This document shows, in pieces, positions 2,192 to 43,915 of a stretch of DNA of 64,000 bases. Every line of letters starts with the position of its first letter. Positions within the stretch are counted from its first letter, which is position 1. Under the pieces are notes generated by a model. That model had not been told where the DNA came from. It ran no database searches and was given only the letters and a program-made list of their open reading frames with translations. Origin of the DNA: Anaerolineae bacterium (GTDB lineage Bacteria > Chloroflexota > Anaerolineae > Promineifilales > Promineifilaceae); the NCBI GenBank assembly GCA_026129185.1, contig JAHCIO010000019.1, positions 4,198-68,197 on the forward strand, in the 5' to 3' direction. Position numbers and translations under genes: made by a program.

Positions 2192-5100
2192 ATGCTGACG
2201 CCCGACGCCGCCAAAGCCGCCCTCGATGCCCGGCGCGTGCCCGACATGGTGAAGGCCGTCCGCGCCGCCGCCGGCCGCCTGCCCGGCGACTTGCGCCCCA
2301 TCGCCTACGCCCTCATCGGCTTCGATGCGTGGGGGGCGAAGATGGACTCCATGAGACCCATCACCGACCCCGACTCCAACATCCGCCAGGGCGGCCTGCG
2401 CTACGAGAAGCTGAGCGGCAACGACCGCCGCCGTATTCTGCGCGCCCTGGCCCCGCGCGTGGCCGACGACCTGGACGCGGCCTGGGAACTGATGAAGTCC
2501 ATGCCCTATGGCTTCGATGTCTTTCGCCGTCCCTTCCGCGCTAAGCACCCGGCCCTCAGCTTCTGGAAGCGCTGGTACTGGCTGCGGGGCGTACTGGCCC
2601 CGGTGGCCGAGTTCGACGCTGACACGGCCTGGTTCGCCGTCCACGCCGGCTATCTACCCGCAGATGCCGACCGGCTCGGCCGCCTCTTCGCCGGGGCCAT
2701 CGACCACGGCCACGGCGAAGTGTTCGACATCCTGACCGCCACCGCCCGCGGACGCCATCCCACGGCGCTGATGGGCCGCCACGTGACGCGCGGCCTGCTC
2801 TCGGCGGCGCGGCCGGAGGGCTGGGCGGCCGTGGTCGATCTGCTCCTGTCCGCCCAGCGCGAGGAGGGGCTGCGGCAGGTCATCCTGGAGACGGCTGACG
2901 AGAGCCACCCCGACGCCTTCCGGCTTATCCTGCGCGCCATTATCGACCACAACCTGAGCCGCTTCAGCGCCACCACGCGCGCCGCCAACACCTGGCTGGG
3001 CTTCGGGCTGGACGCGGAGATCGGCGGCGACCTGCCCGGCATCCTGCGCCAGGTCTTGCTCTACCTGGACAACCGCGCCGAGCGCGAATGGGTCGCCGCC
3101 CGCGGCACGGGGCAAGAGGCCTACCTGGCGTTGTGGGCTATGGCCTACGAGAACATCGACACCGCCGCCAACGCGGCCGAGCCGCTGCTGGGCGATGCCG
3201 ACGCGGCGCGCCGCTTCGCCGCGGCCTACGTGCTGGGCAGCATGCAGCTTCCCCCGGCGTCGTCGGCGCTCATCCCCTGCCTGGCCGACGAAGACCTGCG
3301 CCTCGTTGCCCTGACCTGTAGCTTCTGGGCGCAAACCCCGCCGCACGACGCCGCCGCCTTCGAGGCGCTGGAGGCGGCGCTGCCCCGCCTGCCCAAAACG
3401 CCCCGGCCGCTGCCGCCTCTCCTCTGGCCGTGGCTGCCGCTGACGGCCGGGCGCGCCCAGGCCGCCGACCTGCTGCTCAAGCTGCTGGGCGACCGGCCGC
3501 CGCAACGGCTCATCCCCCACCTGCCGGCCATGTCGCCCTGGCCGCGCGGCCAGGCCGCCGGCCGGCTCGGCGCGGTGGCCGGCGACCACGCCGCCCGTGA
3601 TGCGCTCTTTGACCTGCTGGCCGACCGGAGTGGCGCGGCCCGCGACGCGGCCCTGAAGGCGCTCGGCCAGACCGTCCTCCGCCCGCAGGAAGCGCCGCAG
3701 GTGGAGGCGCTGCTGGGCCGGCCGAGCGGCGACGTGCGCCGGGCGGCCCTGTCGCTGCTGGCCGAGCAGCTGCCCGACGCGGCCCTGGCCAGCGCTGACC
3801 GCCTGCTGGCCGCCAGGGACGAGACCAGCCGCCTCGGCGGGCTGGAGTTACTGGCCCAGTTGGCCCGCGCCGGCCGGGAGGTCGAAGCCGCCCGCGCCCG
3901 GGCCGCGGCCTATCGCGTCGGCCGGCCGGCCCTCTCCCCGGCCGAAGAAACCCAACTGGCCGCCCTGCAACCGGCCGCGCCCGCGCCAACGCCAACGCTC
4001 GCCAACGCGCTGGGGCTGGCCCCGTCGGCGGCGCGGACGGCGTGCGCGCCGCCGCGCCGGCTCAAGGTCTCTGACTGGACGCCGGCCACGGCCGCCTGCC
4101 TCAAGTCGCTCGATGCCCTCATCCACGCCCACCGCGACACGCCCATCCCCCACCGCGACGGGGGCGAGGCGGTCCTGCTGGGCGATAGCTGGGCCTGGAC
4201 ACACTTGCGCGAGCCGGACCCGAACCGGCCGCTGGAGGAAAACCTGCCCAACTTCTTCCTGCGCGACGTGTGGGAGAAGTGGTGGGCCGAGCGCGGGCCG
4301 GCGTGCCGCGACGCGGACGGATTGGAGCTGCTGCGCGCGTGGATCAACTCCCTGGCAAGCTACTATCTCGCTTTTCCCGACGAGAAGCCCCAACGCATCG
4401 GCTTCGACTACCCCGATGTCGCCCGGCGCGTGCTGACCTGGCTCATCCGTCTGCATCCGCCGGCGGCCGGGCCGGACGCCGCGCTCGATCTGCTGGAGTC
4501 GGCCTGCCAGTTGCGGCCCCATGACGCGGCCGCGCGCCCGGCCGGCGGCGGCGCGGATTCCGACAGCTTCGACAGCCACAAGGCGTTTCGACGACGCCTG
4601 AGCCACTACCCCCACGGCCTGCGCTTCTACCGCCGCATTGACCCGGGCTGGGGCGACGCCCACCACCGGCGCTTCTTCCACCTGTTGCGCTGGATCGACG
4701 AGCCGCCGGGCTACACCCTGCGCCAACGGCCCACCATCGAAGACGTACTGCTGGCCCACCGCGCCGGCGGGGCGACAACCGCCGACATCTACGACCAACT
4801 GCTGGGCGACCGCGGCCTGACGCTGGGCCAGCCGTTCGGCGAACTGCAAGCTCTCTCCGCCGCGCGGCCCCACCGGCTGATGACCGAGTTCCCCGTGCTG
4901 GGCGAAGTCATGGCCGCCAGCCGCGAGCGCATCCTGGCCGTGGAAGTAGCCCGTGGCGAGTTGACGACCGCGGCCACTCAACCGGCCCTGGCCTTGCAGG
5001 CCATTTACGGCGCGCCGTGGTTCCTGCGTCTCGTCGTTGCCCTGGATGGCCACTTTCAGCATTCGGTTCACTTCGTCTTTCCCGCCGACAGCCGGGCAGA

Positions 5101-7048
5101 GACGCTCAGCCACCTTCTGCGCGTGTGCCTGCCGGCGGCCGACGACACGCCGGAGGCCACGGCCGCGCTGCTGCGCCAGGCCGGCCTGCCGCAGCGAACG
5201 CTGATCGGCGCCGGCCTCTTCGCGCCGCAGTGGGCCGCGGCCGTCGAACAGGCCCTCGGCTGGGCGGGCTATGCCGACGCGGTCTGGTGGGTTCACGCCA
5301 ATATGGCCGGCCCAAATCACGGCCAGGCCCACGACATCGGCCGGCAGTGGTTGGCCGAGATCGCGGCGCGCACCACTCTGCGCCCGGAGGAGCTGCGGAA
5401 CGGCGGGGCCGACGTGGCCTGGTTCCAGCGCGTCTACGCCACGCTGGGCGAGGCGCGCTGGCTGAAGTTCGCCCCGCAGATGCGCCACGCCCAGCGCGGC
5501 GATTACAAGCGCGCCGCCCTCTTTGCCGACGCGCTTCTCGGCCGCGTCAGCCGCGAGGAGATCGAGCGGCGCATCCTGACCAAGCGCCATCAGGACAGCG
5601 TGCGCGCCCTGGGGCTGCTGCCGCTGCCGGAGGAAGGGCGCGAGGCGGAGTTGCTGAGCCGCTATCAGACTATTCAGGCATTCCGCCGCGGTTCGCGCCA
5701 GTTCGGGGCGCAACGCCGCGAGAACGAGGGGCTGGCGGCGCAAGCCGGGCTGGAGAACATGGCCCGCGCCGCCGGCTACCCCGACCCGCTGCGCCTGACC
5801 TGGGCGATGGAAGGGCGCGAGATGGCCGAGTGGCTCGCCGGCCCGCTCAGCGCCACCGCCGGCGACGTGACCGTGCGCCTGACGCTCGATGTAGTGGGCA
5901 CGCCCGACATCCTGGTGGATCGGGCCGGGCGCAAGCTGAAGTCCATCCCCGCCGCGGCGCGCAAGGCCCCGGCCGTCGTCGATCTGCTGGAGCGCCGCCG
6001 GGCCATTGAGGGGCAGCAGAAGCGCATGCGCCCGGCGCTGGAGGCGGCGATGTGCCGCGAGGAATGCTTCCTGGCCGGCGAGCTGCGCGACCTGTTGATC
6101 CATCCCACGCTGGCCCCGATGTTGGCCCAACTGGTCTGGATCGGCGCGAACGGCGACGGCTGCCTGGGCTACCCGGTGGACGGCGGCCGGGCGCTGCAAG
6201 GCCACGACGGCCGCCGCATCCCCCTGACCGACGACACGCCGCTGCGCGTGGCCCATCCCTATGACCTATGGCAGACGGGCGAGTGGCATCTCTGGCAACG
6301 GGAGTGCTTCCGCGCCGAGCGCATCCAGCCCTTTAAGCAGGTCTTCCGCGAGCTATACCTGCTGACCGCCGCTGAGACCGAAACCGGCCACCTCTCGCGG
6401 CGCTACGCCGGGCAGCAGATCAAGTCCCGCCAGGCCGCGGCGCTACTCAATGGTCGCGGCTGGGTGCTGACCCATGAGATGGGCGTCCGGCGCGCCTTCC
6501 GCGAGCGCGGCCTGACGGCTGTGATTGAGTCGATGATGGACTGGCTGACCCCGGCCGAGACGGAGGGCGTGACGCTGGAAGCGGTCTTCTTCGTCCGTCC
6601 CGACCAACCGTGGCAGCCGCAGCCGTTGGCCGACGTGCCGCCGCTGGTGTTCAGCGAGGTGATGCGCGATCTCGATCTGGTGGTCAGCGTGGCCCACAGC
6701 GCCGGCGTCGATCCGGAGGCCAGCTTCTCGACCGTCGAGGCGCGCGCGGCCCTGTTGCGCGAGACGCTAGACCTGTTGCGCCTGGGCAACGTGCGCCTGG
6801 AAAACCGTCACGCGCTCATCGACGGCCGGCTGAGCAGCTACGCGGTACACCTGGGTAGCGGGGTAGTACACCGGCGGCCGGGCGGCGCATTGTGCATCGT
6901 GCCCGTCCATAGCCAGCAGCGCGGTCGCCTCTTCCTGCCCTTTGCCGACGATGACCCCAAGACGGCCGAAGTGGTCGCCAAAGTCATCCTGCTGGCCCGC
7001 GATGAGTTGATTCGCGACCCGACGATATTGGAGCAGATTGTGAGGTAG
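2192..7048 (+). CDS. Large helical-repeat protein with DUF4132-like C-terminal region (1618 aa)
   Basis: Long ORF with HEAT-like repeats. C-terminal RERIQPFKQVFRELY and FSEVMRDLDLVVSVAH segments are typical of DUF4132-containing proteins. Confidence 0.8.
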   Translation: MLTPDAAKAALDARRVPDMVKAVRAAAGRLPGDLRPIAYALIGFDAWGAKMDSMRPITDPDSNIRQGGLRYEKLSGNDRRRILRALAPRVADDLDAAWELMKSMPYGFDVFRRPFRAKHPALSFWKRWYWLRGVLAPVAEFDADTAWFAVHAGYLPADADRLGRLFAGAIDHGHGEVFDILTATARGRHPTALMGRHVTRGLLSAARPEGWAAVVDLLLSAQREEGLRQVILETADESHPDAFRLILRAIIDHNLSRFSATTRAANTWLGFGLDAEIGGDLPGILRQVLLYLDNRAEREWVAARGTGQEAYLALWAMAYENIDTAANAAEPLLGDADAARRFAAAYVLGSMQLPPASSALIPCLADEDLRLVALTCSFWAQTPPHDAAAFEALEAALPRLPKTPRPLPPLLWPWLPLTAGRAQAADLLLKLLGDRPPQRLIPHLPAMSPWPRGQAAGRLGAVAGDHAARDALFDLLADRSGAARDAALKALGQTVLRPQEAPQVEALLGRPSGDVRRAALSLLAEQLPDAALASADRLLAARDETSRLGGLELLAQLARAGREVEAARARAAAYRVGRPALSPAEETQLAALQPAAPAPTPTLANALGLAPSAARTACAPPRRLKVSDWTPATAACLKSLDALIHAHRDTPIPHRDGGEAVLLGDSWAWTHLREPDPNRPLEENLPNFFLRDVWEKWWAERGPACRDADGLELLRAWINSLASYYLAFPDEKPQRIGFDYPDVARRVLTWLIRLHPPAAGPDAALDLLESACQLRPHDAAARPAGGGADSDSFDSHKAFRRRLSHYPHGLRFYRRIDPGWGDAHHRRFFHLLRWIDEPPGYTLRQRPTIEDVLLAHRAGGATTADIYDQLLGDRGLTLGQPFGELQALSAARPHRLMTEFPVLGEVMAASRERILAVEVARGELTTAATQPALALQAIYGAPWFLRLVVALDGHFQHSVHFVFPADSRAETLSHLLRVCLPAADDTPEATAALLRQAGLPQRTLIGAGLFAPQWAAAVEQALGWAGYADAVWWVHANMAGPNHGQAHDIGRQWLAEIAARTTLRPEELRNGGADVAWFQRVYATLGEARWLKFAPQMRHAQRGDYKRAALFADALLGRVSREEIERRILTKRHQDSVRALGLLPLPEEGREAELLSRYQTIQAFRRGSRQFGAQRRENEGLAAQAGLENMARAAGYPDPLRLTWAMEGREMAEWLAGPLSATAGDVTVRLTLDVVGTPDILVDRAGRKLKSIPAAARKAPAVVDLLERRRAIEGQQKRMRPALEAAMCREECFLAGELRDLLIHPTLAPMLAQLVWIGANGDGCLGYPVDGGRALQGHDGRRIPLTDDTPLRVAHPYDLWQTGEWHLWQRECFRAERIQPFKQVFRELYLLTAAETETGHLSRRYAGQQIKSRQAAALLNGRGWVLTHEMGVRRAFRERGLTAVIESMMDWLTPAETEGVTLEAVFFVRPDQPWQPQPLADVPPLVFSEVMRDLDLVVSVAHSAGVDPEASFSTVEARAALLRETLDLLRLGNVRLENRHALIDGRLSSYAVHLGSGVVHRRPGGALCIVPVHSQQRGRLFLPFADDDPKTAEVVAKVILLARDELIRDPTILEQIVR

Positions 7049-7112
7049 GGGGAGGTTCTAGAGGCTAGGGAAGAACGCTTTTACCTGGCCCCTGGCCCCT
7101 GGAACCTCCTCC
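7049..7112. repeat. Imperfect palindromic intergenic repeat (AGGTTC..GAACCT arms with CCCTGG heptamers)
   Basis: Shares the AGGTTC(C/T)AG..GGAAGA(G/A)CGCT core with copies near 9712, 12383 and 16833. Confidence 0.65.
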
Positions 7113-7155
7113 CTATCTTGCGCGCCGCCGGTCGGGGAGAGACAATTGCCCGATC

Positions 7156-8829
7156 ATGAAACGACCGCTGCTCTTGCTGATTCTCCTGCTGCTGCTGGCC
7201 GCTTGCCGCTTTGGGCCGACGGACGACGGGCCACAGACCACGGCTGTGCCAACGGCGGCGCCGACGACGGACGACGCTAACCCGACCGCCGCTAACCCGA
7301 CAGCCGACAGCCGACCGACGACCGCCGCCAACCCGACTGCCGTGCCGCCAACCACGGCCGCCAGACCACAGACCACGCCCGCCGACGCCCCCCTAATCCC
7401 TAATCCCTATCCCCTAGCCCCTATCTTCGACATCGCCTGGGACGACCGCGCCATCTACGCCCGCGGCCTCGTCGCCCCGGCGGCCGAGGACGTGCCCGGC
7501 GCGCCCGTCTACCACATCGACATCACCATCGCCGACGACCTGCGCACCGTCACGGGGCGGCAGACGGTCTTCTATACCAACATGGAAGACGCGCCCCTGA
7601 GCGAGATCGTCTTCCACCTCCACCCCAACCTGCTCGACAGCGCCATCGAGGTCAGCGACCTGACTGTGGACGGCGCGCCCGCGCCGACGACCATCAGCGG
7701 GGCCAAGCGCAGCATCCTGACCGTGGCCCTGCCCGCGCCGCTGCCGCCGGGGGCCACGACGACCCTCGACATGCACTTCGTGACCGAGGTGGCCACCGAC
7801 ATCGGCCGCAACTACGGCGTGCTGGCCATCTACGACGGCATCCTCGCCCTGGCCCACTTCTACCCCATGCTGTCGGTCTACGACGCCACGGGCTGGAACA
7901 CGGCCGAGGCCGACGTGCAGGGCGACCTGACCTATAGCGATGCCGGCTACTACCTCGTGCGCGTGGCCGCGCCGGCGGGAGTCACGGTCGTGGCCTCCGG
8001 GGTGGCGGTTGAAGAAGAAGCCCTCTCTCAAGAGGAGGGCGAACAGCGGACGACGGTCTATGCCGTTGGGCCGGCGCGCGATTTCTACCTGGCCGCGGGC
8101 GACTTCGCGGTCGTCAGCGGCACGGCCGGCGCGACGACGATCAACAGCTACGCCCCGGCCGAACTGCGCGACGGCGCGGCGCTGGCCCTCGACGTGGCCG
8201 CGGCGGCTATCGGCATCAACGAGGCCCGCCTGTCGCCCTTCCCCTACACCGAACTCGACATCGTCACCACGCCCACGGCCGCGCTGGGCATCGAATACCC
8301 CGGCCTCATCGTCGGCACGCTACGCATGTACGACATCACCGCCACGAACCAGGCCGGCGTGGGCTACGACGACATCCTCGAATCGACCACCGCCCACGAA
8401 GTCATGCATCAGTGGTTCTATAACCTCATCGGCAACGACCAGCTCGACGAGCCGTGGCTGGACGAGTCGATGGCCGGCTACCAGACCTATCGCTACTACG
8501 CTGACCGCTACGGCCAGGCCGCCGGCGACGCCTACTTCGGCAACTTCGCCGGCCGCTGGGAGAGCGTTGACCGGGCCGAGATTCCCATCGGCCTGCCCGT
8601 GCGCGCCTACCAGGGGCCGGAGTATGGAGCCATCGTCTACGGCCGCGGCCCCTTCTTCCTGCGCGCGCTGGAGGAGCAGATGGGGCGGGAGACGTTCGAC
8701 GCCTTTCTGCGCGACTACGCCGCGGCGTTCCGCTGGGGCATCAGCACGACGGCCGACTTCCAGACCCTGGCCGAGGCGCGCTGCGGCTGCGACCTGGAGC
8801 CGCTCTTCGCCGCGTGGGTCACTGAGTAA
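7156..8829 (+). CDS. M1-family zinc aminopeptidase, lipoprotein
   Basis: Lipobox LLAAC; HEVMH zinc motif followed by WLDES; GIEYPG exopeptidase-like motif. Confidence 0.9.
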   Translation: MKRPLLLLILLLLLAACRFGPTDDGPQTTAVPTAAPTTDDANPTAANPTADSRPTTAANPTAVPPTTAARPQTTPADAPLIPNPYPLAPIFDIAWDDRAIYARGLVAPAAEDVPGAPVYHIDITIADDLRTVTGRQTVFYTNMEDAPLSEIVFHLHPNLLDSAIEVSDLTVDGAPAPTTISGAKRSILTVALPAPLPPGATTTLDMHFVTEVATDIGRNYGVLAIYDGILALAHFYPMLSVYDATGWNTAEADVQGDLTYSDAGYYLVRVAAPAGVTVVASGVAVEEEALSQEEGEQRTTVYAVGPARDFYLAAGDFAVVSGTAGATTINSYAPAELRDGAALALDVAAAAIGINEARLSPFPYTELDIVTTPTAALGIEYPGLIVGTLRMYDITATNQAGVGYDDILESTTAHEVMHQWFYNLIGNDQLDEPWLDESMAGYQTYRYYADRYGQAAGDAYFGNFAGRWESVDRAEIPIGLPVRAYQGPEYGAIVYGRGPFFLRALEEQMGRETFDAFLRDYAAAFRWGISTTADFQTLAEARCGCDLEPLFAAWVTE

Positions 8830-8862
8830 AATGTCGGTGATCAATTGACCGGCAAATTGTAA

Positions 8863-8891
8863 GTGACATCGTAACAAATGTCGTGTATAGT
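8863..8891 (+). promoter_or_regulatory. Sigma70-type promoter (-35 GTGACA, 17-bp spacer, -10 TATAGT)
   Basis: Each hexamer matches consensus at 5/6 positions with ideal spacing. Confidence 0.65.
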
Positions 8892-8897
8892 ATCAAC

Positions 8898-9216
8898 ATA
8901 TCCCGTAGGAATGACGCGGCGCAAACAACGAGGCCACGGAGCCACATCGCCGCCGGCACCATAACAACATCACACTATCACCGCACTACTGCGTGACTAT
9001 CAGGGCTGCAACACTGTCGCACCATTGCCACACGCATCGCAACCACTCTGGGGGGCCATTGGCCTTATGCCATCACGTCATCGCCGCATCACCACAGAGC
9101 ATCGCCGCATCACCATCCTGACCTGATAGTCTCCGCGTCATTCACCACCATTGCCAACATCACACACGGGATTCAGAAAGACAAAGACCGAGCCAGCCAC
9201 TCGGTCTTTTCTTTTT
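8898..9216 (+). ncRNA. Candidate novel structured sRNA
   Basis: Lies between the promoter and an intrinsic terminator. Nested perfect helices are 8900-8906/9166-9172, 8909-8919/9133-9143 and 8995-9004/9122-9131. It has no credible ORF. Confidence 0.6.
9183..9216 (+). terminator. Intrinsic terminator, probably bidirectional (also serving aroQ)
   Basis: Stem AAAGACCGAG/CTCGGTCTTT with a 7-nt loop and a T-tract. Confidence 0.8.
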
Positions 9217-9241
9217 GGGGCGATTGTTGCCGCGCGGCGGC

Positions 9242-9679
9242 TCAGCGCTCCAGCAGATAGTCCAGCAGCGCCGCCAGGCCGAGCCGGTAGCTGTGCCGGC
9301 CGAAGCCGCTGATTTGCCCCACGCAGACGGCGGCGATGACCGAGCGGTGGCGGAACTCCTCACGGGCGTGGATGTTGGACAGATGTACCTCGACCGTGGG
9401 CAGCCCGACCGCGGCGAGCGCGTCGCGCAGGGCGTAGCTGTAGTGGGTCAGCGCGCCGGGGTTGATGAGGATGCCGTTGGCCCACAGCCGCGCGTCGTGG
9501 ATGGCGTCGATGAGCACGCCCTCCTGGTTCGATTGCAGGATACGCAGCTCCGTGCCGCGCTTGGTCGCCTCGGCGACGAGCATCTCGTTGATCTCGGCCA
9601 ACGTCCAGCGGCCGTAGACCTCCGGTTCGCGCTGGCCGAGCAGGTTCAAGTTGGGGCCGTGAAGGGTTAGGATGCGCAT
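9242..9679 (-). CDS. aroQ: Type II 3-dehydroquinate dehydratase
   Basis: [40 protein letters not shown] motifs. Confidence 0.97.
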
Positions 9680-9680
9680 A

Positions 9681-9890
9681 GGGGTTAGGGGATAGGGGTT
9701 AGGGGATAGGGATTAGGTTCCAGAGGCCAGGTTCCAGGGAAGAGCGCTCACGCAAGAAGCTTACGCCAAGGGGGCCAGGGACGCAAAGGGAAGAAAGCTT
9801 ATTCTTCTTTGCGTTCTTGGCCCCCTTCGCGTCCTTTGCGTGAGCTTCTTCCCTGGCCCCTGGAACCTGGCCCCTATCCCCTAATCCCTC
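9681..9890. repeat. Nested composite palindrome: G-rich TAGGGG(T/A) arms enclosing a CGCAAAG-type palindrome
   Basis: Left arm GGGGTTAGGGGATAGGGG.., right arm CCCCTATCCCCTAATCCC; inner arms CACGCAAG../..CTTTGCGTG. Confidence 0.8.
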
Positions 9891-11491
9891 GCCCCCAGCC
9901 CCGCCAACACGCCCACGACCGCCGCCGCGGGCACGTCATCGCGGAGGAACACGTCGCCGATGTCGTGGAGGAGGACGAAGCGCAGGCGGCCGGCCAGCTT
10001 TTTCTTGTCCGTGCTCATGGCGGCGAAGAGGGCCGCCGGGTCGAGCGACGGCGGGATGTGGGTCGGCAGGCCCAGCCGGGCCAGGGTCATCTCGACGACG
10101 TGGGGCAGCGACGGCGAGCACTCCTCCAGGGCGGCCGACAGCCGCGCCGCCGCGGCCAGGCCGATGGCCACCGCGTCGCCGTGGCGGACGGCGTAGCCCG
10201 ACACTTGCTCGATGGCGTGGCCGAAGGTGTGGCCGAGGTTCAGCACCGCCCGCCGGCCGCGCTCATATGGGTCGGCCTCGACCACGTCGCGCTTGACACG
10301 GATGGCCCGCGCCAGCAGCGATTGCAGGTCAGCCCGTCGCAGCCGGTCGGTGGCCAGCAGGGCCGGGTCGATGTGCCACTCCTCCATCAGCAGCCGTTGC
10401 CACAGCAGCGGGTCGGCGATGAGGCCGTGCTTGGCCGCCTCGGCCAGCCCGGCGGTGAACTCGGCCGCGGGCAGAGTCGCCAGCGTGCCCACGTCGGCCA
10501 GCACGCCGCGCGGCTGGGCGAACGCCCCGACGAGGTTCTTGCCCTGCGGCAGGTCAACGCCCGTCTTGCCGCCGATACTGGCATCGACCATGGCCAGCAG
10601 GCTTGTCGGGCAAAGGGCGAAGTCAATGCCGCGCAGGTAGGTCGCGGCCACGAAGCCGGCCACGTCGCCGACGACGCCGCCGCCCAGGCCGATGATCGTC
10701 CCGTCGCGCCCCAGCCCGGCGGCCAGCAGCCCGTCATAGAGGTCGCGCACGGTGTCGAGCGTCTTGTGCCGTTCGCCCGCGGGCATGGTCAGCACGGGCG
10801 GCGGGCCGAAGCGGGCCGCATGGCCAAGCCGGGCCGCGTGGCGCGGGCCAACCTCGCTATCGGTGATGACCACGGCCGGGCCGCGGGCCAGCCCGGCGGC
10901 CTCCGGCAACAGGTCTTCGCCGATGACGACCGCGTAGCTGCCGCCGGGGTGGCGGACGGTCAGCGTGTCGCGCAGCCCGGCGGCCAGGGCCGCGGCGATG
11001 TCGTCGGCCACGGCCGCGGGCGAACGGCCGTCGGTGTCCACCGGCCGGAAGCGGGCATAGCCAACGGCCCGCTGGCGCTGTAGCGCGGCCACGCGCGCCG
11101 CGGCATCGTCGCCCGCCAGCAGCGGCCGGGCCGCGCCGCCGACGGCCACGCGCGCCAGGATTTCTCCGACCGAGGCGGACAGGCAGAAGACCGGCCCCGT
11201 GGCCCCCAGCGCCGCGGCGTTGGCCGCGTCGAGCATCAGCCGGCCGCCCGTGGCGATGACCAGCCCGCGCCGGCCGGCCAGTTCGGCCGCCGCGTCGGCT
11301 TCCCAGGCGCGGAAGCGCTCTTCGCCTTCGTCGCGGAAGATGTCGGCCACGGGCTTGCCGGCGCGGGCGACGATGAGGTCGTCGCTATCGACGAAGTCGC
11401 GGCCCAGGCGCGCGGCCAGCAGCCGGCCGACGGTCGTCTTGCCCGTGCCCATGAAGCCGGTCAGGATGATGTTGTCGCGCGGGTCAGTCAT
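9881..11491 (-). CDS. aroKB: Bifunctional shikimate kinase / 3-dehydroquinate synthase
   Basis: N-terminal GFMGTGKTT..DSD..ATGG (AroK). C-terminal GGGVVGDVAGF, PTSLLAMVDASIGGK, LNLGHTFGHA, HGDAVAIG (AroB). Confidence 0.95.
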   Translation of the reverse strand: MTDPRDNIILTGFMGTGKTTVGRLLAARLGRDFVDSDDLIVARAGKPVADIFRDEGEERFRAWEADAAAELAGRRGLVIATGGRLMLDAANAAALGATGPVFCLSASVGEILARVAVGGAARPLLAGDDAAARVAALQRQRAVGYARFRPVDTDGRSPAAVADDIAAALAAGLRDTLTVRHPGGSYAVVIGEDLLPEAAGLARGPAVVITDSEVGPRHAARLGHAARFGPPPVLTMPAGERHKTLDTVRDLYDGLLAAGLGRDGTIIGLGGGVVGDVAGFVAATYLRGIDFALCPTSLLAMVDASIGGKTGVDLPQGKNLVGAFAQPRGVLADVGTLATLPAAEFTAGLAEAAKHGLIADPLLWQRLLMEEWHIDPALLATDRLRRADLQSLLARAIRVKRDVVEADPYERGRRAVLNLGHTFGHAIEQVSGYAVRHGDAVAIGLAAAARLSAALEECSPSLPHVVEMTLARLGLPTHIPPSLDPAALFAAMSTDKKKLAGRLRFVLLHDIGDVFLRDDVPAAAVVGVLAGLGARD

Positions 11492-11600
11492 TGGCCCCCA
11501 TTATCCACCAAATTGCCACGTTTGTGGAACCATTGGCCGCACCCCGGCGTCCTAGGAGCAGACCGGCAACGGTTGAAAACACTTGCAAGGAGAGTAACAG

Positions 11601-12356
11601 ATGTCTAAGCACAAGAATCTGATCGCCGTTCTGCTCATCGTCGTCTTGAGTCTGGCTTTGGCGGCCTGCAACGCGGCCACGCCCAGCGCCGCCGGCCCCG
11701 CCGCGCAGTCGGGTTCGACCGTCAGCGCCGGGGGCATCACTGTCGTCGGCCAGGGCACGGCCTATGGCCAGCCCGACCAGGCCACCGTCGTCGTCGGCGT
11801 CGATACCTTCGCTGAGACGGTCGGCGAGGCCACGGCGCAGAACCAGACGACCCTCGACAACGTGATGGCCGCGCTGGCCGCGGCCGGCATCGCCAACGAG
11901 GACATCCAGACGACCAACTACAGCCTCTACGCCGAGCAGGTCTACGGCGACAACGGCCCGGAAGGGATCGCCGGCTACCGCGTCAGCAACCAGGTCAACG
12001 TCAAGATCCGCGACATCAGCCTCGTCGGCGATGTCCTCGGCGCGGTGACCGAGGCGGGGGCCAACGCCATCTATGGCGTCAACTTCTCCGTGGCCGACCC
12101 GGCGGCGCTGGAGGCCGAGGCCCGCGCCCTGGCCATGCAAGACGCCGCCGAGCGGGCCGCGTCCCTGGCCGAACTGGGCAACGTGACCCTGGGCAATGTG
12201 ACCGTCATCAGTGAGGTCGTGGGCCAACCGGTCACGCCGCTGGGCATGGGCGGCGGCAACTACGCGATGGAGCAAGCCGCCTCGGCCCCCGGCATCTCCC
12301 CCGGCCAGCTGAGCTACCAGGTGCAGGTGCAGGTGACGTATGGGATTGGGGGGTAG
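11601..12356 (+). CDS. SIMPL (DUF541) domain lipoprotein
   Basis: Lipobox LAAC; ITVVGQGTAYGQPDQA, DIQTTNYSL, GANAIYGVNF, ISPGQ motifs. Confidence 0.9.
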   Translation: MSKHKNLIAVLLIVVLSLALAACNAATPSAAGPAAQSGSTVSAGGITVVGQGTAYGQPDQATVVVGVDTFAETVGEATAQNQTTLDNVMAALAAAGIANEDIQTTNYSLYAEQVYGDNGPEGIAGYRVSNQVNVKIRDISLVGDVLGAVTEAGANAIYGVNFSVADPAALEAEARALAMQDAAERAASLAELGNVTLGNVTVISEVVGQPVTPLGMGGGNYAMEQAASAPGISPGQLSYQVQVQVTYGIGG

Positions 12357-12395
12357 GGATTAGGGATTAGGGGATAGGGATTAGGTTCCAGGGGA
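12348..12395. repeat. G-rich TAGGG(A) heptamer tract
   Basis: GGGGGTAGGGATTAGGGATTAGGGGATAGGGATTAGGTTCCAGGGG. Confidence 0.75.
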
Positions 12396-12404
12396 AGAGA
12401 GCGT

Positions 12405-12610
12405 CGCAGTGCCTGGCACTTTCCGGAGTGCCTGGCACTTTCTTGATCTGGCTGCGCCTCCGAGAAGGTGCGACGCACTCAAGAAAGTGCGACGCACCGG
12501 CGCGCCGCGCAGTGCCTGGCACTTTCCGGAGTGCCTGGCACTTTCTTGATCTGACTGCGCCTCCGAGAAGGTGCGACGCACTCAAGAAAGTGCGACGCAC
12601 CGGCGCGCCG
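12405..12610. repeat. Two tandem 103-bp REP/BIME-like units
   Basis: Near-identical units at 12405-12507 and 12508-12610, each with two GTGCCTGGCAC and two GTGCGACGCAC palindromes. Confidence 0.85.
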
Positions 12611-12616
12611 CGCAGG

Positions 12617-15600
12617 TTAGGCCCGCCCTTCGACGATGGCGATCTCCTCGTCGGTCAGGCCGTAGAGCTTGTAGACGATCTGGTCGATGAGCCGGTCGGT
12701 GTGGGCGATGCGCTCGACCAGTTCGCGGTAGCGGGGGGCGTAGCGGCCGTAGACCTTCACCAGCCCGCTCAACCCATCCACCGGCCCGGCCAGGGCGCGA
12801 ACGAAGGCCTTGAAGGCGGCCTCGTCCCAGGCCAGGCTTTCGTCCAGCGCGCGCGTGCTGTGGCTGTCGGCGCGGACGTAGGCGGCCAGGGCCGGGTCGG
12901 CGGCCAGGCCGGCCTCCTGTTTGCCCTTGTCGCGCAGCTTGCGGAAGGCCGCCGGGGCGGTCACGCCTTCGAGGTCGATCCAGAAGTCGGCGGTTAGGGA
13001 TTGCCTCATCTGAACAAAGTCTAGGCGTCGAGTGGCCAAGTGATCCAAAGCTACGCATACATGCTTTGAGTTCACTGGCATTTCTGTACATGCTTCGAAG
13101 GTCTCGACGTATAGGCCTGAATCATCCGATAGTTGTACAGACTCCCAGTTAACCGGAATAGGGAATGCGGCTAATCGTTCCGGCTGAACTTCGTAGTATC
13201 CATTGGCTTTCGGTGCGAACACTTTCCGGCAATAGTAATACGCTAGCCGAGAGTTGAGTAGGGCCACAACAAACCGCCCCTTTGCAACATCAGCTACAGG
13301 GATGACGTATGAAGTATTGGATGCGTACAGGGTGTCCTGTCTCAGAGAGAAAGAGGGCTGAAACGAAACCTTGGTGGAATGAATGCGAGGCGCTTCAAAA
13401 ACCGGGTAATAATCGACTGAGTCCTGAATTTCAAACCATTTATACTGTCCGGCCTTCCGTCCGAGCCAAGGTTGGGAATTGTCCCAATCATTCGGCTTCG
13501 GTTCTAGGCGTTCGCGATACAGTTCAAGGTACTCTGCAATGGCAGGATACTGAGCTAAATCGGTTCCTCGGCGGGTGAATATAAGAAACAGTTGTGGATC
13601 ATCTTGGTACCACGGGTGCAGATCCTCTCCTCGAACGTACGGTTTAATCAGCAAAGCTGAGCCGGGGTCTTGCTCAATCAATCGCTGCTTGACGTGGCTG
13701 TCAATGACAAATGCGTTATTAAGGCCGGTAGTAACGCCGCGGTATACTGAAGTTGCCATTACTACAGAGAGGGGCAGGTAGGCATTGGAACCAGCTAGAA
13801 ACTCTTGTAGCTTCCCTCCAACAAAGACCCATTGCTCAGTGCCCTTTGGCACAGCGACAGACCAACTTGGACTTTGTGAGATTTCTACAAGTTCAGTCTG
13901 TTCAGCGTTTACAAACAGCAGGCTGTCCTCTGCGGTTGGCGCTCTTTTCTCTATAACGAGAATAATGGGGTAAGTCGTAGCATCTTCAAAAACCTGACGC
14001 TTGCCAAAATCCACAATCACTGCAAGGCTGCTTGTCTTGGTCAAATAATCCCGCACAGGCGCACCATAACTCAGACGACAGAATTGGCTAGAACAAATTA
14101 AGCCTAGCCTGCCTGCCTGCCTGAGCGTAGTGACTCCAAGAGCTAAGAAGTACACGTAGATATCTGCTGCGCCATGATATATTTCGCTAAACCTTGATTC
14201 GTAGAACCCTTTGTTGAGTCCACCCAGAACTTCCTGCCTCACATACGGCGGATTCCCAATCACCGCGTCAAACCCGGCTCTCTCCCCTTTCGGCCGCCCG
14301 TAGCGGTCGAAGAAGACCTCCGGGAATTCCAGTTCCCAGTGGAAGTAGTCGTTGTCGGTCGCGGCGGGGTGGTTCAGGTAGCGGGCGGCCTGCTCGGCGC
14401 TCATCGTCGCTTCGGGCTGGCCCTGTAGCCGCAGGGCCAGGTCGCGGTACTCGGCCGCGCTCATCTCGTTGCCGAACCAGGCGCTCACCCACAGATCGGC
14501 CAGCCGCCGCCAGCGGCCAAGGTGGGCCTCGCGGATGGTCTGGTAGACCTGCTCCTTGGCATGGACGGCCTCCAGGTCTTCGGTCAGCATCGTCTCGATG
14601 GTCGCTGCCTCGCTGACGGCCTGCCCGGCGTTGGCCGTGAAGGCCGATTCGTTGAAAAGGGGCGCGGCCTCCGGCGGCTGACCGCCGGCGGCTGGCGACC
14701 GGCCGCGAATCGCCCCCGGCGGCCGGTCCAAATCCTTCAGCCACGCGCCGATGAGGCTGTCGCCGTGGCGCAAATGGTGGTCAAGGAAGCTCAGCGGCTT
14801 CGCCTCGGCCACGGTCACCAGCCACAGGCTCAGCTTGGCCAACTCCACGGCCAGTTCGTTTTTGTCCACGCCATAGATGCAAGCCTCCACGACGCGGCGC
14901 CGCCAGTAGGTCAGGTCGCTCTCTTCGGAAGGATAGGGATTAGGGGATAGGGAATAGGGGTTAGGGGTGGCGGCGGTGGTCGTTCCGTCGGCCGTCGGCG
15001 GTCGGCCGTCGGCGGTCGTCTTGCCCCCGGCCGTCGTCCACTCGGCCGTCGCCAGGGCGCGGGCGAGATAGTCGGTCGCGTCCACCAGGAAGTGGCCCGA
15101 CCCCATCGCCGGGTCGAGGATGTTCAGGGCCAGAATCTCGGCCTCGAACCGCCGCGCGGCAACGGCCCGGTGCGGCTCTGGCCCGTGGGTCTTGGCCCCC
15201 GGCGCGTCCCCGGCGTGGGCTTCTTCCGCCCGCCGGCGCGCCTCGGCCACCAGCGGCCCCAGCGTCTGCTCGACGATGTACTTGACGATGGCGTCGGGCG
15301 TGTAGTAGCTGCCGGTGGCCTTGCGCTCGCCCTTGTCCGTGGCCAGATACAGCTCGCCCGGCGCTTTCGTCTCGATGGTCTTGGCCTTGCCGCGCTCGCG
15401 GGCCGGCAGCCACGTCTCCTTGCCGCCGCGCCGCACGGTGACCAGCGCTTCGGCGGCGACGCTGACCTTATATTCCAACAGCCCCTCGTAGATGGAGCCG
15501 AGCTGGCGCACGCCCAGCGTGCGATAGTCAACCGGCTCATAGCCGGCGAAATTGCCTTTGTCGTCGGTCTTGCGCCGCCGGGCCAAATAGTCGAGCGCCC

Positions 15601-43132: not shown

Positions 43133-43428
43133 TCGTTCAGTCCCATCCTCTGCCAGAGTTCCTCTTCGCGCTCAGCACGATCGTTGAGGATGAGTTCGTC
43201 CGGGAACGCGCCTGATTCCAGACGAATAGCTTCACGGATTTGGGCGAGTTCGGCGATTGTCGTCAGTGTTTGCCGCTTGCGCGTTTCATCGTCACGCTCA
43301 ACCAGGTAATGGGCCACAGCCTCACGGATTACTTCGGACATACTGCGCCCCTCGGCCGCGGCCAACTGCTGCAAGCTCTCGTGTTGCGCGCGCTCTAACA
43401 AAACTTGGGTGCGATAGAGTTGGGTCAT
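43129..43428 (-). CDS. CopG/RHH antitoxin
   Basis: RTQVLL..AAAEGRSMSEVIREAV; ATGA overlap with vapC. Confidence 0.85.
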   Translation of the reverse strand: MTQLYRTQVLLERAQHESLQQLAAAEGRSMSEVIREAVAHYLVERDDETRKRQTLTTIAELAQIREAIRLESGAFPDELILNDRAEREEELWQRMGLNE

Positions 43429-43486
43429 AGGTCACCTCTAAGCTATTATATTACATCTACACATGTGTATTAGCAATCTCACAATC

Positions 43487-43915
43487 TCATCGCCCAGACT
43501 CTTTGATAAGCTGATCAATCTGCTCGGTGATTTCTCGCCTTTCAAATTCCAATTGACTCAACATATCGACTAGCCTATCCATAGATAGTGACTGGGCGTA
43601 ATTCTTAGTCAACTGTGTGTGCCAAGTTATGTATTGATAATAAGCTGAACGAGCAGCCGGAGAGGATGTCATGCTAACCTTTACGTTTCCCTCTGAATCG
43701 GAAACTAAGTCCATGCTACCTAGCGCAACTATGAGTTGCGCTATTTCGTTACGCTTTCTTTCAAGCTCGTGTAAACGAGTTTGACGTTGCCAAACAGCTT
43801 CCTGGTATCTTAAGGTTCGATTTGTCACCAAGAAGCTGAAGCCTCCGGCGATTAAGGCGCCAATTAGTGTTCCTATTAATGTGAACACTCCTATGGCCAC
43901 GTCTGGATTCTCCAC
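43487..43915 (-). CDS. Low-GC hypothetical protein with N-terminal TM helix
   Basis: 142-aa ORF with SD AGGAG, in an AT-rich segment. Confidence 0.65.
   Translation of the reverse strand: MENPDVAIGVFTLIGTLIGALIAGGFSFLVTNRTLRYQEAVWQRQTRLHELERKRNEIAQLIVALGSMDLVSDSEGNVKVSMTSSPAARSAYYQYITWHTQLTKNYAQSLSMDRLVDMLSQLEFERREITEQIDQLIKESGR

Follow-up and report, generated by a model that had tools for sequence, protein, structure and literature searches.

What occupies the gap between an M1-family peptidase gene and the dehydroquinase gene aroQ in Candidatus Promineifilum, a filament bacterium from wastewater? The gap lies within the window analyzed here, a 64,000-nucleotide (nt) stretch of contig JAHCIO010000019.1 (assembly GCA_026129185.1). 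An earlier examination of these letters without database searches (hereafter the sequence-only reading) had proposed that the gap encodes a structured RNA of ~320 nt, missing from the annotation and bracketed by a promoter and an intrinsic terminator. Our follow-up confirms this RNA gene exactly where it had been placed. Its product belongs to a new, highly expressed RNA family, probably of the multi-site titrating small RNA (sRNA) kind. Gene structure, conservation, covariation, lack of coding capacity, high abundance, and the number and exposure of the motifs are all seen directly in the data. Because the element is conserved, covarying and transcribed, it stands far beyond chance. The features on which the argument draws are listed below; G000 denotes the genome that carries the window copy, and the other G numbers denote the relatives compared with it.

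8898..9216, + strand: the RNA gene, ~319 nt when counted from its predicted start through the last T of the terminator, placed by metatranscriptome contigs and alignments
8863..8891, + strand: promoter GTGACA-17-TATAGT, with GTGACA at 8863 and TATAGT at 8886, a 10/12 consensus match in a promoter scan
8900..8906 and 9166..9172, + strand: arms of helix P1 (ATCCCGT and ACGGGAT), with 97% of cells paired in 12 sequences
8909..8919 and 9133..9143, + strand: arms of helix P2 (GAATGACGCGG and CCGCGTCATTC), the clamp helix common to the family, 97% paired
8919..8923 and 8990..8994, + strand: arms of helix P2a (GCGCA and UGCGU; RNAalifold, 12 sequences), which forms the base of the G-poor 5′ loop and can replace the final pair of P2
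8924..8989, + strand: G-poor 5′ loop, largely unpaired by prediction, in which the blocks CAUCGCCGCCRGCACC and AACAAC are conserved
8995..9004 and 9122..9131, + strand: arms of helix P3 (GACTATCAGG and CCTGATAGTC), 96% paired in 12 sequences
9035..9121, + strand: central domain with six CAUC motifs (9035, 9071, 9079, 9087, 9100 and 9108), plus another at 9114
9144..9165, + strand: 3′ internal loop, C/A-only, with CACCAU and CAUCAC, unpaired in both the minimum free energy (MFE) and the consensus structures
9183..9216, + strand: intrinsic terminator AAAGACCGAG...CUCGGUCUUU plus U run, with the stem at 9183-9209 and the T run reaching 9216 (terminator scan)

At least 14 metatranscriptome runs of activated sludge or wastewater, produced by several studies, contain the window RNA in their assembled contigs; some of these runs amount to only 2-8 million letters. 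Four runs (X1, X2, X3 and X7), chosen because they contain the RNA sequence, were compared with positions 8400-9700, taking as depth the assembler's word depth, a rough measure, from contigs that carry no strand information or exact ends. In X1, the word depth is ~3,000-13,000 over 8928-9147 and 0-26 over aroQ. The upstream value of 259 in this run is a flat average over one 422-nt contig (8554-8975), 78 nt of which belong to the RNA, and is compatible with low upstream expression together with some read-through. X2 shows a word depth of 1,948 on the RNA, 0-14 upstream and ~46-58 downstream, the downstream value coming from another strain's contig. The sole X3 contig matching 8400-9700, in a run of 7.3 million letters, spans 8909-9193 with no mismatch, and X7 has one contig spanning 8922-9199, with low flanks. 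In two larger runs, the RNA is ~100 times as deep as its flanks. The simplest reading of these data is a discrete RNA of ~300 nt, about two orders of magnitude above its neighbors, as expected of an independent sRNA gene. A transcript of the size predicted by the sequence-only reading is present in these contigs.

The gene carries its own signals. A consensus scan of the 900-nt region found three promoter-like sites where 0.1 would be expected. The near-consensus promoter of the sequence-only reading is present, and its -10 element, TATAGT, is kept across genera of the family together with a YGTAAY motif at N10 spacing (in the window CGTAAC at 8870-8875, 10 nt 5′ of the -10 element), whereas its -35 element, GTGACA, is kept in close relatives only. 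At the other end, the terminator stem is 99% paired in the 12 sequences, with one covarying pair that is A-U in six and G-C in six, and the same terminator occurs in short-form orthologues. Its own promoter and intrinsic terminator, and the lack of a conserved open reading frame (ORF), are what is expected of an independent bacterial sRNA gene. The gene is single-copy by BLAST in a 4.9-Mb, 99.7%-complete genome, and no paralogue was found in that genome by BLAST, by CAUCG density or by a scan for G-poor windows.

Three perfect nested helices, at 8900/9166, 8909/9133 and 8995/9122, had been read from the sequence; all three are exact and all appear in the MFE structure of the + strand, which has an energy of -93.2 kcal/mol (z = -3.9 versus shuffles). 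Because the reverse strand folds about equally well, folding alone does not indicate the strand. We therefore turn to a set of 12 Promineifilum variants, a small sample of related sequences drawn from relatives' genomes and one metagenome scan. The RNAalifold consensus of their alignment comprises P1 (8901-8906/9166-9171), P2 (8909-8918/9134-9143), P2a (8919-8923/8990-8994), P3 (8995-9001/9125-9131) and the terminator. P1 shows one compensatory exchange, C-G to U-A in G006. P2a is 98% paired, its closing pair being G-U in seven sequences and G-C in five, and P3 shows compensatory changes in four of seven pairs, one of them G-C in seven sequences and A-U in five. When the partner column was slid by 1-3 positions as a control for the helices and terminator, pairing fell to 8-64%, and to 8-62% for P1, P2, P2a and P3 without the terminator. 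P2 is invariant within the 12 variants, but it is swapped for different, complementary arms in G011/G005 and G019. Its equivalent in other genera is GGUGGCGC/GCGCCAC, and when the Promineifilum arm (GGAAUGACGC...AAACA) is aligned with the clamp of those genera (GGGGUGGCGC...AAACA), A-U to G-C exchanges appear in both arms. Thus, P1 and P3 covary within the genus and P2 between genera, the check that the sequence-only reading had proposed for the three helices. The helix cells of the 12 sequences include 48 G-U and 11 A-C combinations, which, together with the promoter, the terminator and its U tract, place the RNA on the + strand. These observations describe a structured RNA for which covariation is good support, short of statistical proof. 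Energies of the 5′/3′ duplex relative to shuffles, tried as a test of the clamp, were too noisy for a statistic.

The interior that these helices enclose is depleted of G. Positions 8941-9180 contain 45 G, exactly the count given earlier, with 91 C, 61 A and 43 T, compared with 33.6% G over the whole window, and only 151 of 63,761 segments of 240 nt are equally G-poor; the depletion is strand-specific. The only other stretch of the window as poor in G, 43390-43700, is AT-rich and foreign-looking, lies beside toxin-antitoxin genes and is not a second copy of the RNA. Elsewhere in G000, G-poor windows are repeat elements or foreign AT-rich DNA, dominated by strand-asymmetric repeats such as CCCTAATCCCTAA-type arms round hairpins and heptamer arrays of ACTGACC/GACCACAGAC.

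Within the RNA, both repeated motifs noted previously are found at the positions given for them, CATCGCCGC at 8945, 9079 and 9100, and CACCAT at 8957, 9020 and 9146, with a fourth copy of the latter at 9111. The motif recorded as CAUCGCCGC is the local form of a unit of 11-12 nt that recurs throughout the family, with the consensus CAUYGCAGCC. In a set of ten divergent Promineifilum orthologues, over-representation is strongest for the words CAUCG (33 observed versus 2.3 expected), AUCGC and ACAUC. In the 12 related orthologues, CAUC and CAUCG reach z = 8 and z = 12 against dinucleotide-preserving shuffles, values that overstate the independence of these sequences, and the enrichment also holds in orthologues too diverged for alignment. 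The unit logo in Promineifilum is CAUCGC(C/A)GC(C), with ~10 copies in the window RNA; in other genera, anchored on CAU(C/U), it is C-A-U-(C 0.7/U 0.3)-(G 0.7/A 0.2)-(C/U)-(A)-G-C-C, and the spacing of units there is overwhelmingly 11 or 12 nt and multiples thereof, with eight successive 11-nt steps in G159. The CACCAU and CAUCAC variants are not part of the conserved core. The central domain of G000 contains a 21-nt tandem duplication (9079-9099 and 9100-9120). Partition-function folds of the G000 RNA give CAUC bases an unpaired probability of 0.81, versus 0.46 for other bases, and its confidently unpaired part (~130 nt) comprises 3% G, 42% C and 38% A. GGA triplets number three in the whole RNA.

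Is this RNA confined to one genus? For the peptidase, the nearest public contigs are those of Promineifilum MAGs (Chloroflexota, Anaerolineae). A DNA search recovered full-length copies from four congeneric genomes, at 74-86% identity, and parts from two more; seven additional variants, with 70-95% identity, came from the metagenome scan. In 20 genomes of the genus from which it was extracted, the peptidase-aroQ gap takes several forms:

Long form, ~310-340 nt: G000, G006, G013, G021, G014 and G008
Divergent long forms: G019 and G011/G005
Short forms, 140-220 nt: G010, G018, G004, G022 and G015/G002/G003
Gap without the RNA: G001 (a palindromic repeat instead), G009, G020 and G012

Common to all forms that carry the RNA are a TATAGT-like -10 element, a G-poor interior, the terminator AAGACCGGG...CCCGGUCUUU and pairing of the 5′ end with sequence immediately preceding this terminator. 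The P2 helix of the divergent long forms consists of different but perfectly complementary arms, such as GUUGGUCAUCG/CGAUGACCGAAC. The G001 gap (L056) contains a long palindrome in which CACAGATT-type repeats surround a GC-rich hairpin, as though the RNA gene had given way to a REP-like element.

Beyond Promineifilum, a second genus has an RNA of 316-392 nt in the peptidase-aroQ gap of six of its seven genomes. The interior of this RNA is a tandem array of units such as ACAUCGCAGCC, with 14 CAUCG in G123, and a homologue from this genus is found in ~20 metatranscriptome runs from biofilm, wastewater and wetland samples. Pattern scans, with the matches read, located further members beside aroQ in four more genera (G094, G088, G159/G132 and G127), so that related RNAs occupy the peptidase-aroQ gap in at least six genera of the bacterial family examined. 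Members at other or unresolved sites (G119, G077 and G058) represent at least three further genera, and three other Anaerolineae families contain members (G268; G311/G340; G528), none beside aroQ. A terminator and a clamp helix, such as GGUGGCGCU/AGCGCCAC or GGGGCAUCGCUCAG/CUGAGCGAUGCCC, are present in every member read; body length ranges from 140 to 390 nt and copy number varies too, while motif, clamp and terminator persist. The window copy has the same defining parts, namely the clamp helix, a G-poor interior with CAUYGC(A)GCC units and the intrinsic terminator.

These members were found by different means. A covariance model of the 5′ 134 nt retrieved only close long-form relatives, its weak matches in G052, G133 and G009 proving to be coding or unrelated sequence, and exact 19-21-mer scans of the genome and metagenome collections returned Promineifilum copies plus chance matches only. 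A loose two-unit pattern mostly caught coding sequence (Ile-Ala-Ala runs, IF-2), and its matches were then judged by eye; a strict three-unit pattern is specific, yet it misses most members, the window copy included. At gathering score, Rfam gave no match in the window; with the limit relaxed to E = 10, 8780-9280 returned only terminator-like noise, and eight homologous loci of other genera had no match either. The RNA is accordingly not a known family, the Infernal comparison proposed earlier having left its novelty intact. Our literature search found no Promineofilum, Anaerolineae or sludge sRNA of relevance. The window RNA is thus, apparently, the Promineifilum member of an Anaerolineae RNA family not described before.

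Several further observations were made at these loci. G053 (contigs C50, C57 and C69) and G082 (C12 and C14), both of one genus, show two or three separate loci with CAUYGCAGCC arrays, a sign that the RNA may have paralogues there. In G119, a very long array of 20-22-nt double units (CAUCGCAGCC UCAUCG..CAC) runs off the contig ends at L126 (contig C424) and at contig C654. The length of this member may lie far above 400 nt; alternatively, the assembly may have been interrupted by the array. A tandem repeat of ~25-37 nt (CATCTTGCCCGCATCGCAGCGCSG...) containing CAUCGCAGC at L133 (G047, contig C116, 6700-8000) may be unrelated. Upstream of the G088 RNA gene, on the opposite strand, lies a T-box leader (RF00230, 109.9 bits; L130:112-413, - strand). 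In G013 (L048), the stretch that separates the RNA terminator from the aroQ stop codon includes a GC-rich hairpin with 13 consecutive C after it.

The promoters of these RNAs share, across genera, a YGTAAY motif placed exactly 10 nt from TATAnT, instead of a -35 hexamer at 17 nt. This arrangement is seen at 8870-8891 in the window and upstream of the RNAs at L080, L085, L089, L096, L130, L131, L136 and L174, and from its sequence it may be a regulator binding site or an unusual promoter type. A conserved block (8830-8862) that starts right after the peptidase stop codon in the long-form Promineifilum group contains a possible regulator site:

8841..8848, + strand: perfect 8-bp palindrome TCAATTGA, within the block upstream of the promoter, in G000, G006, G013, G021 and G014

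At the place of this block, short-form species have the inverted repeats AAATGACG ... CGTCAAAT. The peptidase gene itself, the left neighbor, occupies 7156-8829 on the + strand; on the right, the type II dehydroquinase gene aroQ (9242-9679, - strand), followed by an aroK-aroB fusion, is convergent with the RNA gene and probably shares its terminator. The RNA does not overlap the aroQ coding sequence.

What, then, does the RNA do? Translation into a small protein, from the 17-codon ORF that begins with the AUG at 8911 or from a 19-codon ORF at 9067, is hardly credible. The sequence-only reading had seen no credible ORF here, and indeed the RNA contains no + strand ORF of 60 amino acids or more. 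The AUG at 8911 and its first codons (MTRRK) do recur in 12 of 12 close variants, but they sit inside the invariant P2 arm and lack a Shine-Dalgarno sequence, the ORF downstream varies from 12 to 69 codons among variants, and the ORF at 9067 is lost or frame-shifted in most of them. Indels among the 12 aligned variants are not multiples of three, and because conserved bases fall in different frames in different species (CAUCGCCGCCGGCACC is read as SPPAP in some and as HIAAGT in others), the RNA is non-coding. We would assign next to no probability to a non-functional tandem-repeat or mobile DNA element transcribed by chance. The 11-12-nt units expand and contract fast, and the genome is rich in other repeat families, as such an element would lead one to expect; but the gene is single-copy, its G depletion is strand-specific, its RNA is very abundant, and its locus, promoter, clamp and terminator are kept across genera with compensatory changes, so that covariation and synteny largely refute this explanation. 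In at least six genera, the RNA keeps its place between the peptidase gene and aroQ. This constancy could instead reflect a cis element of these neighbors, either a 3′ extension of the peptidase mRNA or a source of antisense or transcription interference acting on convergent aroQ, and the X1 contig spanning 8554-8975 does join the peptidase gene to the RNA, as an X2 contig joins the 3′ part of the RNA to aroQ. Such a role is most improbable given the conserved promoter and terminator of the RNA itself, a depth ~100 times that of either neighbor, the absence of overlap with the aroQ coding sequence, and members at unrelated loci in other Anaerolineae families and in G077.

The size of the RNA, its very high abundance and its long 5′-3′ closing helix would fit a binder of RNA polymerase that sequesters holoenzyme or core in the manner of 6S RNA or mycobacterial Ms1. 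We nevertheless regard this as quite improbable, since Rfam yields no 6S match even at E up to 10, and the fold is not a rod with a central bubble but encloses an array of short repeats within a body of 140 to 390 nt. A base-pairing regulator or RNA sponge, in which the C-rich, G-free loops offer multiple seeds for G-rich mRNA stretches or for another sRNA, is possible, if unlikely. This explanation takes in pairing with Shine-Dalgarno and start regions, for which GCUGCGAUG-like sites at gene 5′ ends would be expected, and includes the earlier idea that CACCAU and CAUCAC address AUG or GUG starts, in particular those of leaderless genes. The loops are exposed and C-rich, Hfq was not found, as in organisms that use C-rich seed sRNAs, and the complement of CAUCG contains AUG. 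Against this, no extended complement was detected in the genome, the rRNA operon or the tRNAs. Searches of the genome for antisense sites to conserved 16-24-nt blocks gave loose matches only, mostly with two mismatches in 18 and one with a single mismatch, which appear within long GC-rich coding-like sequence; complementarity to the rRNA operon extends to 11 nt, no longer than for shuffled sequence, and none of at least 9 nt was found with the 53 tRNAs. The likeness of AUCACC to the 16S 3′ tail and the partial complementarity of the unit to GCGGCUGGAU were dropped from consideration, as they involve minority variants and an rRNA segment that is paired in helix 45. The link to start codons thus finds no support, and the variants on which it was built are outside the conserved core. 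In addition, the unit has two G's and a periodicity, neither of which seeds need, and a stoichiometric antisense regulator would not usually be this abundant.

Titration of a protein is favored because the clamped, exposed array of units resembles the design of CsrB/RsmZ and CrcZ, and because base pairing found no support. We give about an even chance to the proposal that the RNA is a multi-site titrating (sponge) RNA for a protein that binds single-stranded RNA. In such a mechanism, the clamp helices P1, P2 and P3 would hold open ~130 nt of almost G-free, C/A-rich single strand, which would act as a multi-site decoy that binds and titrates an abundant single-strand RNA-binding protein, setting the free level of that protein for its mRNA targets. 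The fast change of copy number and length, the 21-nt duplication in G000 and the paralogues in G053 and G082 are typical of the evolution of sponge RNAs. The sequence-only reading had likewise suggested a CsrB/Rsm-like sponge with a different motif; this architecture fits everything seen, while the sponge action itself we infer.

Which protein might be titrated? In searches of the 99.7%-complete genome, neither Hfq (PF17209) nor CsrA (PF02599) was found, whereas control genomes were positive for both. The genome does encode Rho, three cold-shock-domain (CSD) proteins and a KhpA-type KH protein, which are the candidate partners. Rho prefers unstructured, C-rich, G-poor RNA of at least 70-80 nt with C every 11-13 nt (PMC6407284), and the loops resemble an idealized Rho utilization (rut) site: they offer at least 80 nt of unstructured RNA with C in excess of G, and a period of 11-12 nt that is clear in the family arrays and weaker in the window copy. 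The cold-shock domain of human YB-1 selects CAUC and CACC (PMC3458536), a lead, by analogy, toward a CSD protein partner. The G's conserved within the unit speak for a reader of higher specificity than that of classical rut recognition. In its broadest form, this reasoning would make the family the RNA arm of an unrecognized global regulatory system of Anaerolineae, most strikingly a Rho decoy that tunes genome-wide termination, or alternatively a CSD/KH sponge that reads CAUC, an extension that we consider distinctly doubtful.

Several points weigh against titration. The short orthologues (~140 nt) have only 1-3 CAUC motifs, few for a sponge, and the spacing of units is far less regular in the window copy than in sister genera. 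No conserved neighboring protein gene points to a binding partner; aroQ adjoins the RNA within one bacterial family and not in the other Anaerolineae families. The evidence for expression consists of assembled contigs without strand and with rough depth, and short-seed pairing to many mRNAs may yet account for the exposed motifs.

Wastewater sludge counts Anaerolineae filaments such as Promineifilum among its core members, and most of these filaments are uncultured. An RNA with word depths in the thousands, conserved over several families and present in neither Rfam nor the literature searched, is notable in such organisms, and the hallmarks of a titrating RNA in a lineage without detected CsrA or Hfq point to a post-transcriptional control system with a protein partner to be found. 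The 11-nt unit (CAUCGCAGCCA) provides a defined bait for finding it. We know of no described RNA antagonist of Rho; were Rho the partner, this RNA would, to our knowledge, be the first to act against this transcription termination factor. In practice, reads of this unannotated RNA are very abundant in wastewater metatranscriptomes, and the RNA is a sensitive marker of the activity of these filaments.

Comparison with established RNAs places these properties in context. Type III antitoxin RNAs (ToxI) are also non-coding RNAs with tandem direct repeats, which in ToxI bind protein, but their units of ~34-45 nt are processed to monomers and immediately precede the toxin gene, whereas the window RNA has units of 11-12 nt, is flanked by the M1 peptidase gene and aroQ and has no adjacent toxin gene. 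6S RNA and Ms1 are similarly abundant, measure ~200-300 nt and have paired 5′ and 3′ ends, but the window RNA has no rod-and-bubble fold and no Rfam match, and its interior is a repeat array of variable length. RsaE/RoxS and the actinobacterial 6C RNA are base-pairing regulators with C-rich seeds in Hfq-free Gram-positive bacteria. Like them, the window RNA has C-rich unpaired motifs and its own gene in a GC-rich or Hfq-less organism; in contrast to these RNAs of 70-120 nt, with 2-4 C-runs in hairpin loops and known G-rich mRNA targets, it has three to four times the length and a motif other than a C-run, and the search for targets in the genome found none. Sites of rut type lack structure over more than 80 nt, are rich in C and poor in G, and repeat C or YC every 11-13 nt (PMC6407284); the arrays of the family have exactly this period. 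Such sites are parts of nascent mRNAs without a conserved unit, whereas here a clamped array of motifs resides in a stable, terminated and abundant RNA.

Several features are shared with the titrating RNAs themselves, although membership in either known group fails: the window RNA has only three GGA, neither CsrA nor Hfq was found, and Rfam gave no match. CrcZ, CrcY and CrcX, the Hfq/Crc titrators of Pseudomonas, are RNAs of ~400 nt whose C/A-rich unpaired motifs sequester a global RNA-binding protein, and AACAAC-type stretches occur in the window RNA too. The motif that the Hfq distal face reads in them is the A-rich AAnAAnAA, whereas the words enriched here are CAUCG, AUCGC and ACAUC rather than A-rich triplet repeats, and the unit has a U and two G's every 11-12 nt. 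CsrB, CsrC and RsmX-Y-Z, which titrate CsrA/RsmA in Gammaproteobacteria, present GGA in hairpin loops, as opposed to CAUYGC(A)GCC in long G-free loops. With these RNAs, the window RNA nonetheless shares the plan of a stand-alone, abundant, non-coding RNA of 100-400 nt, ended by an intrinsic terminator and exposing many copies of one short motif, whose copy number and length evolve fast and which has paralogues in some genomes.

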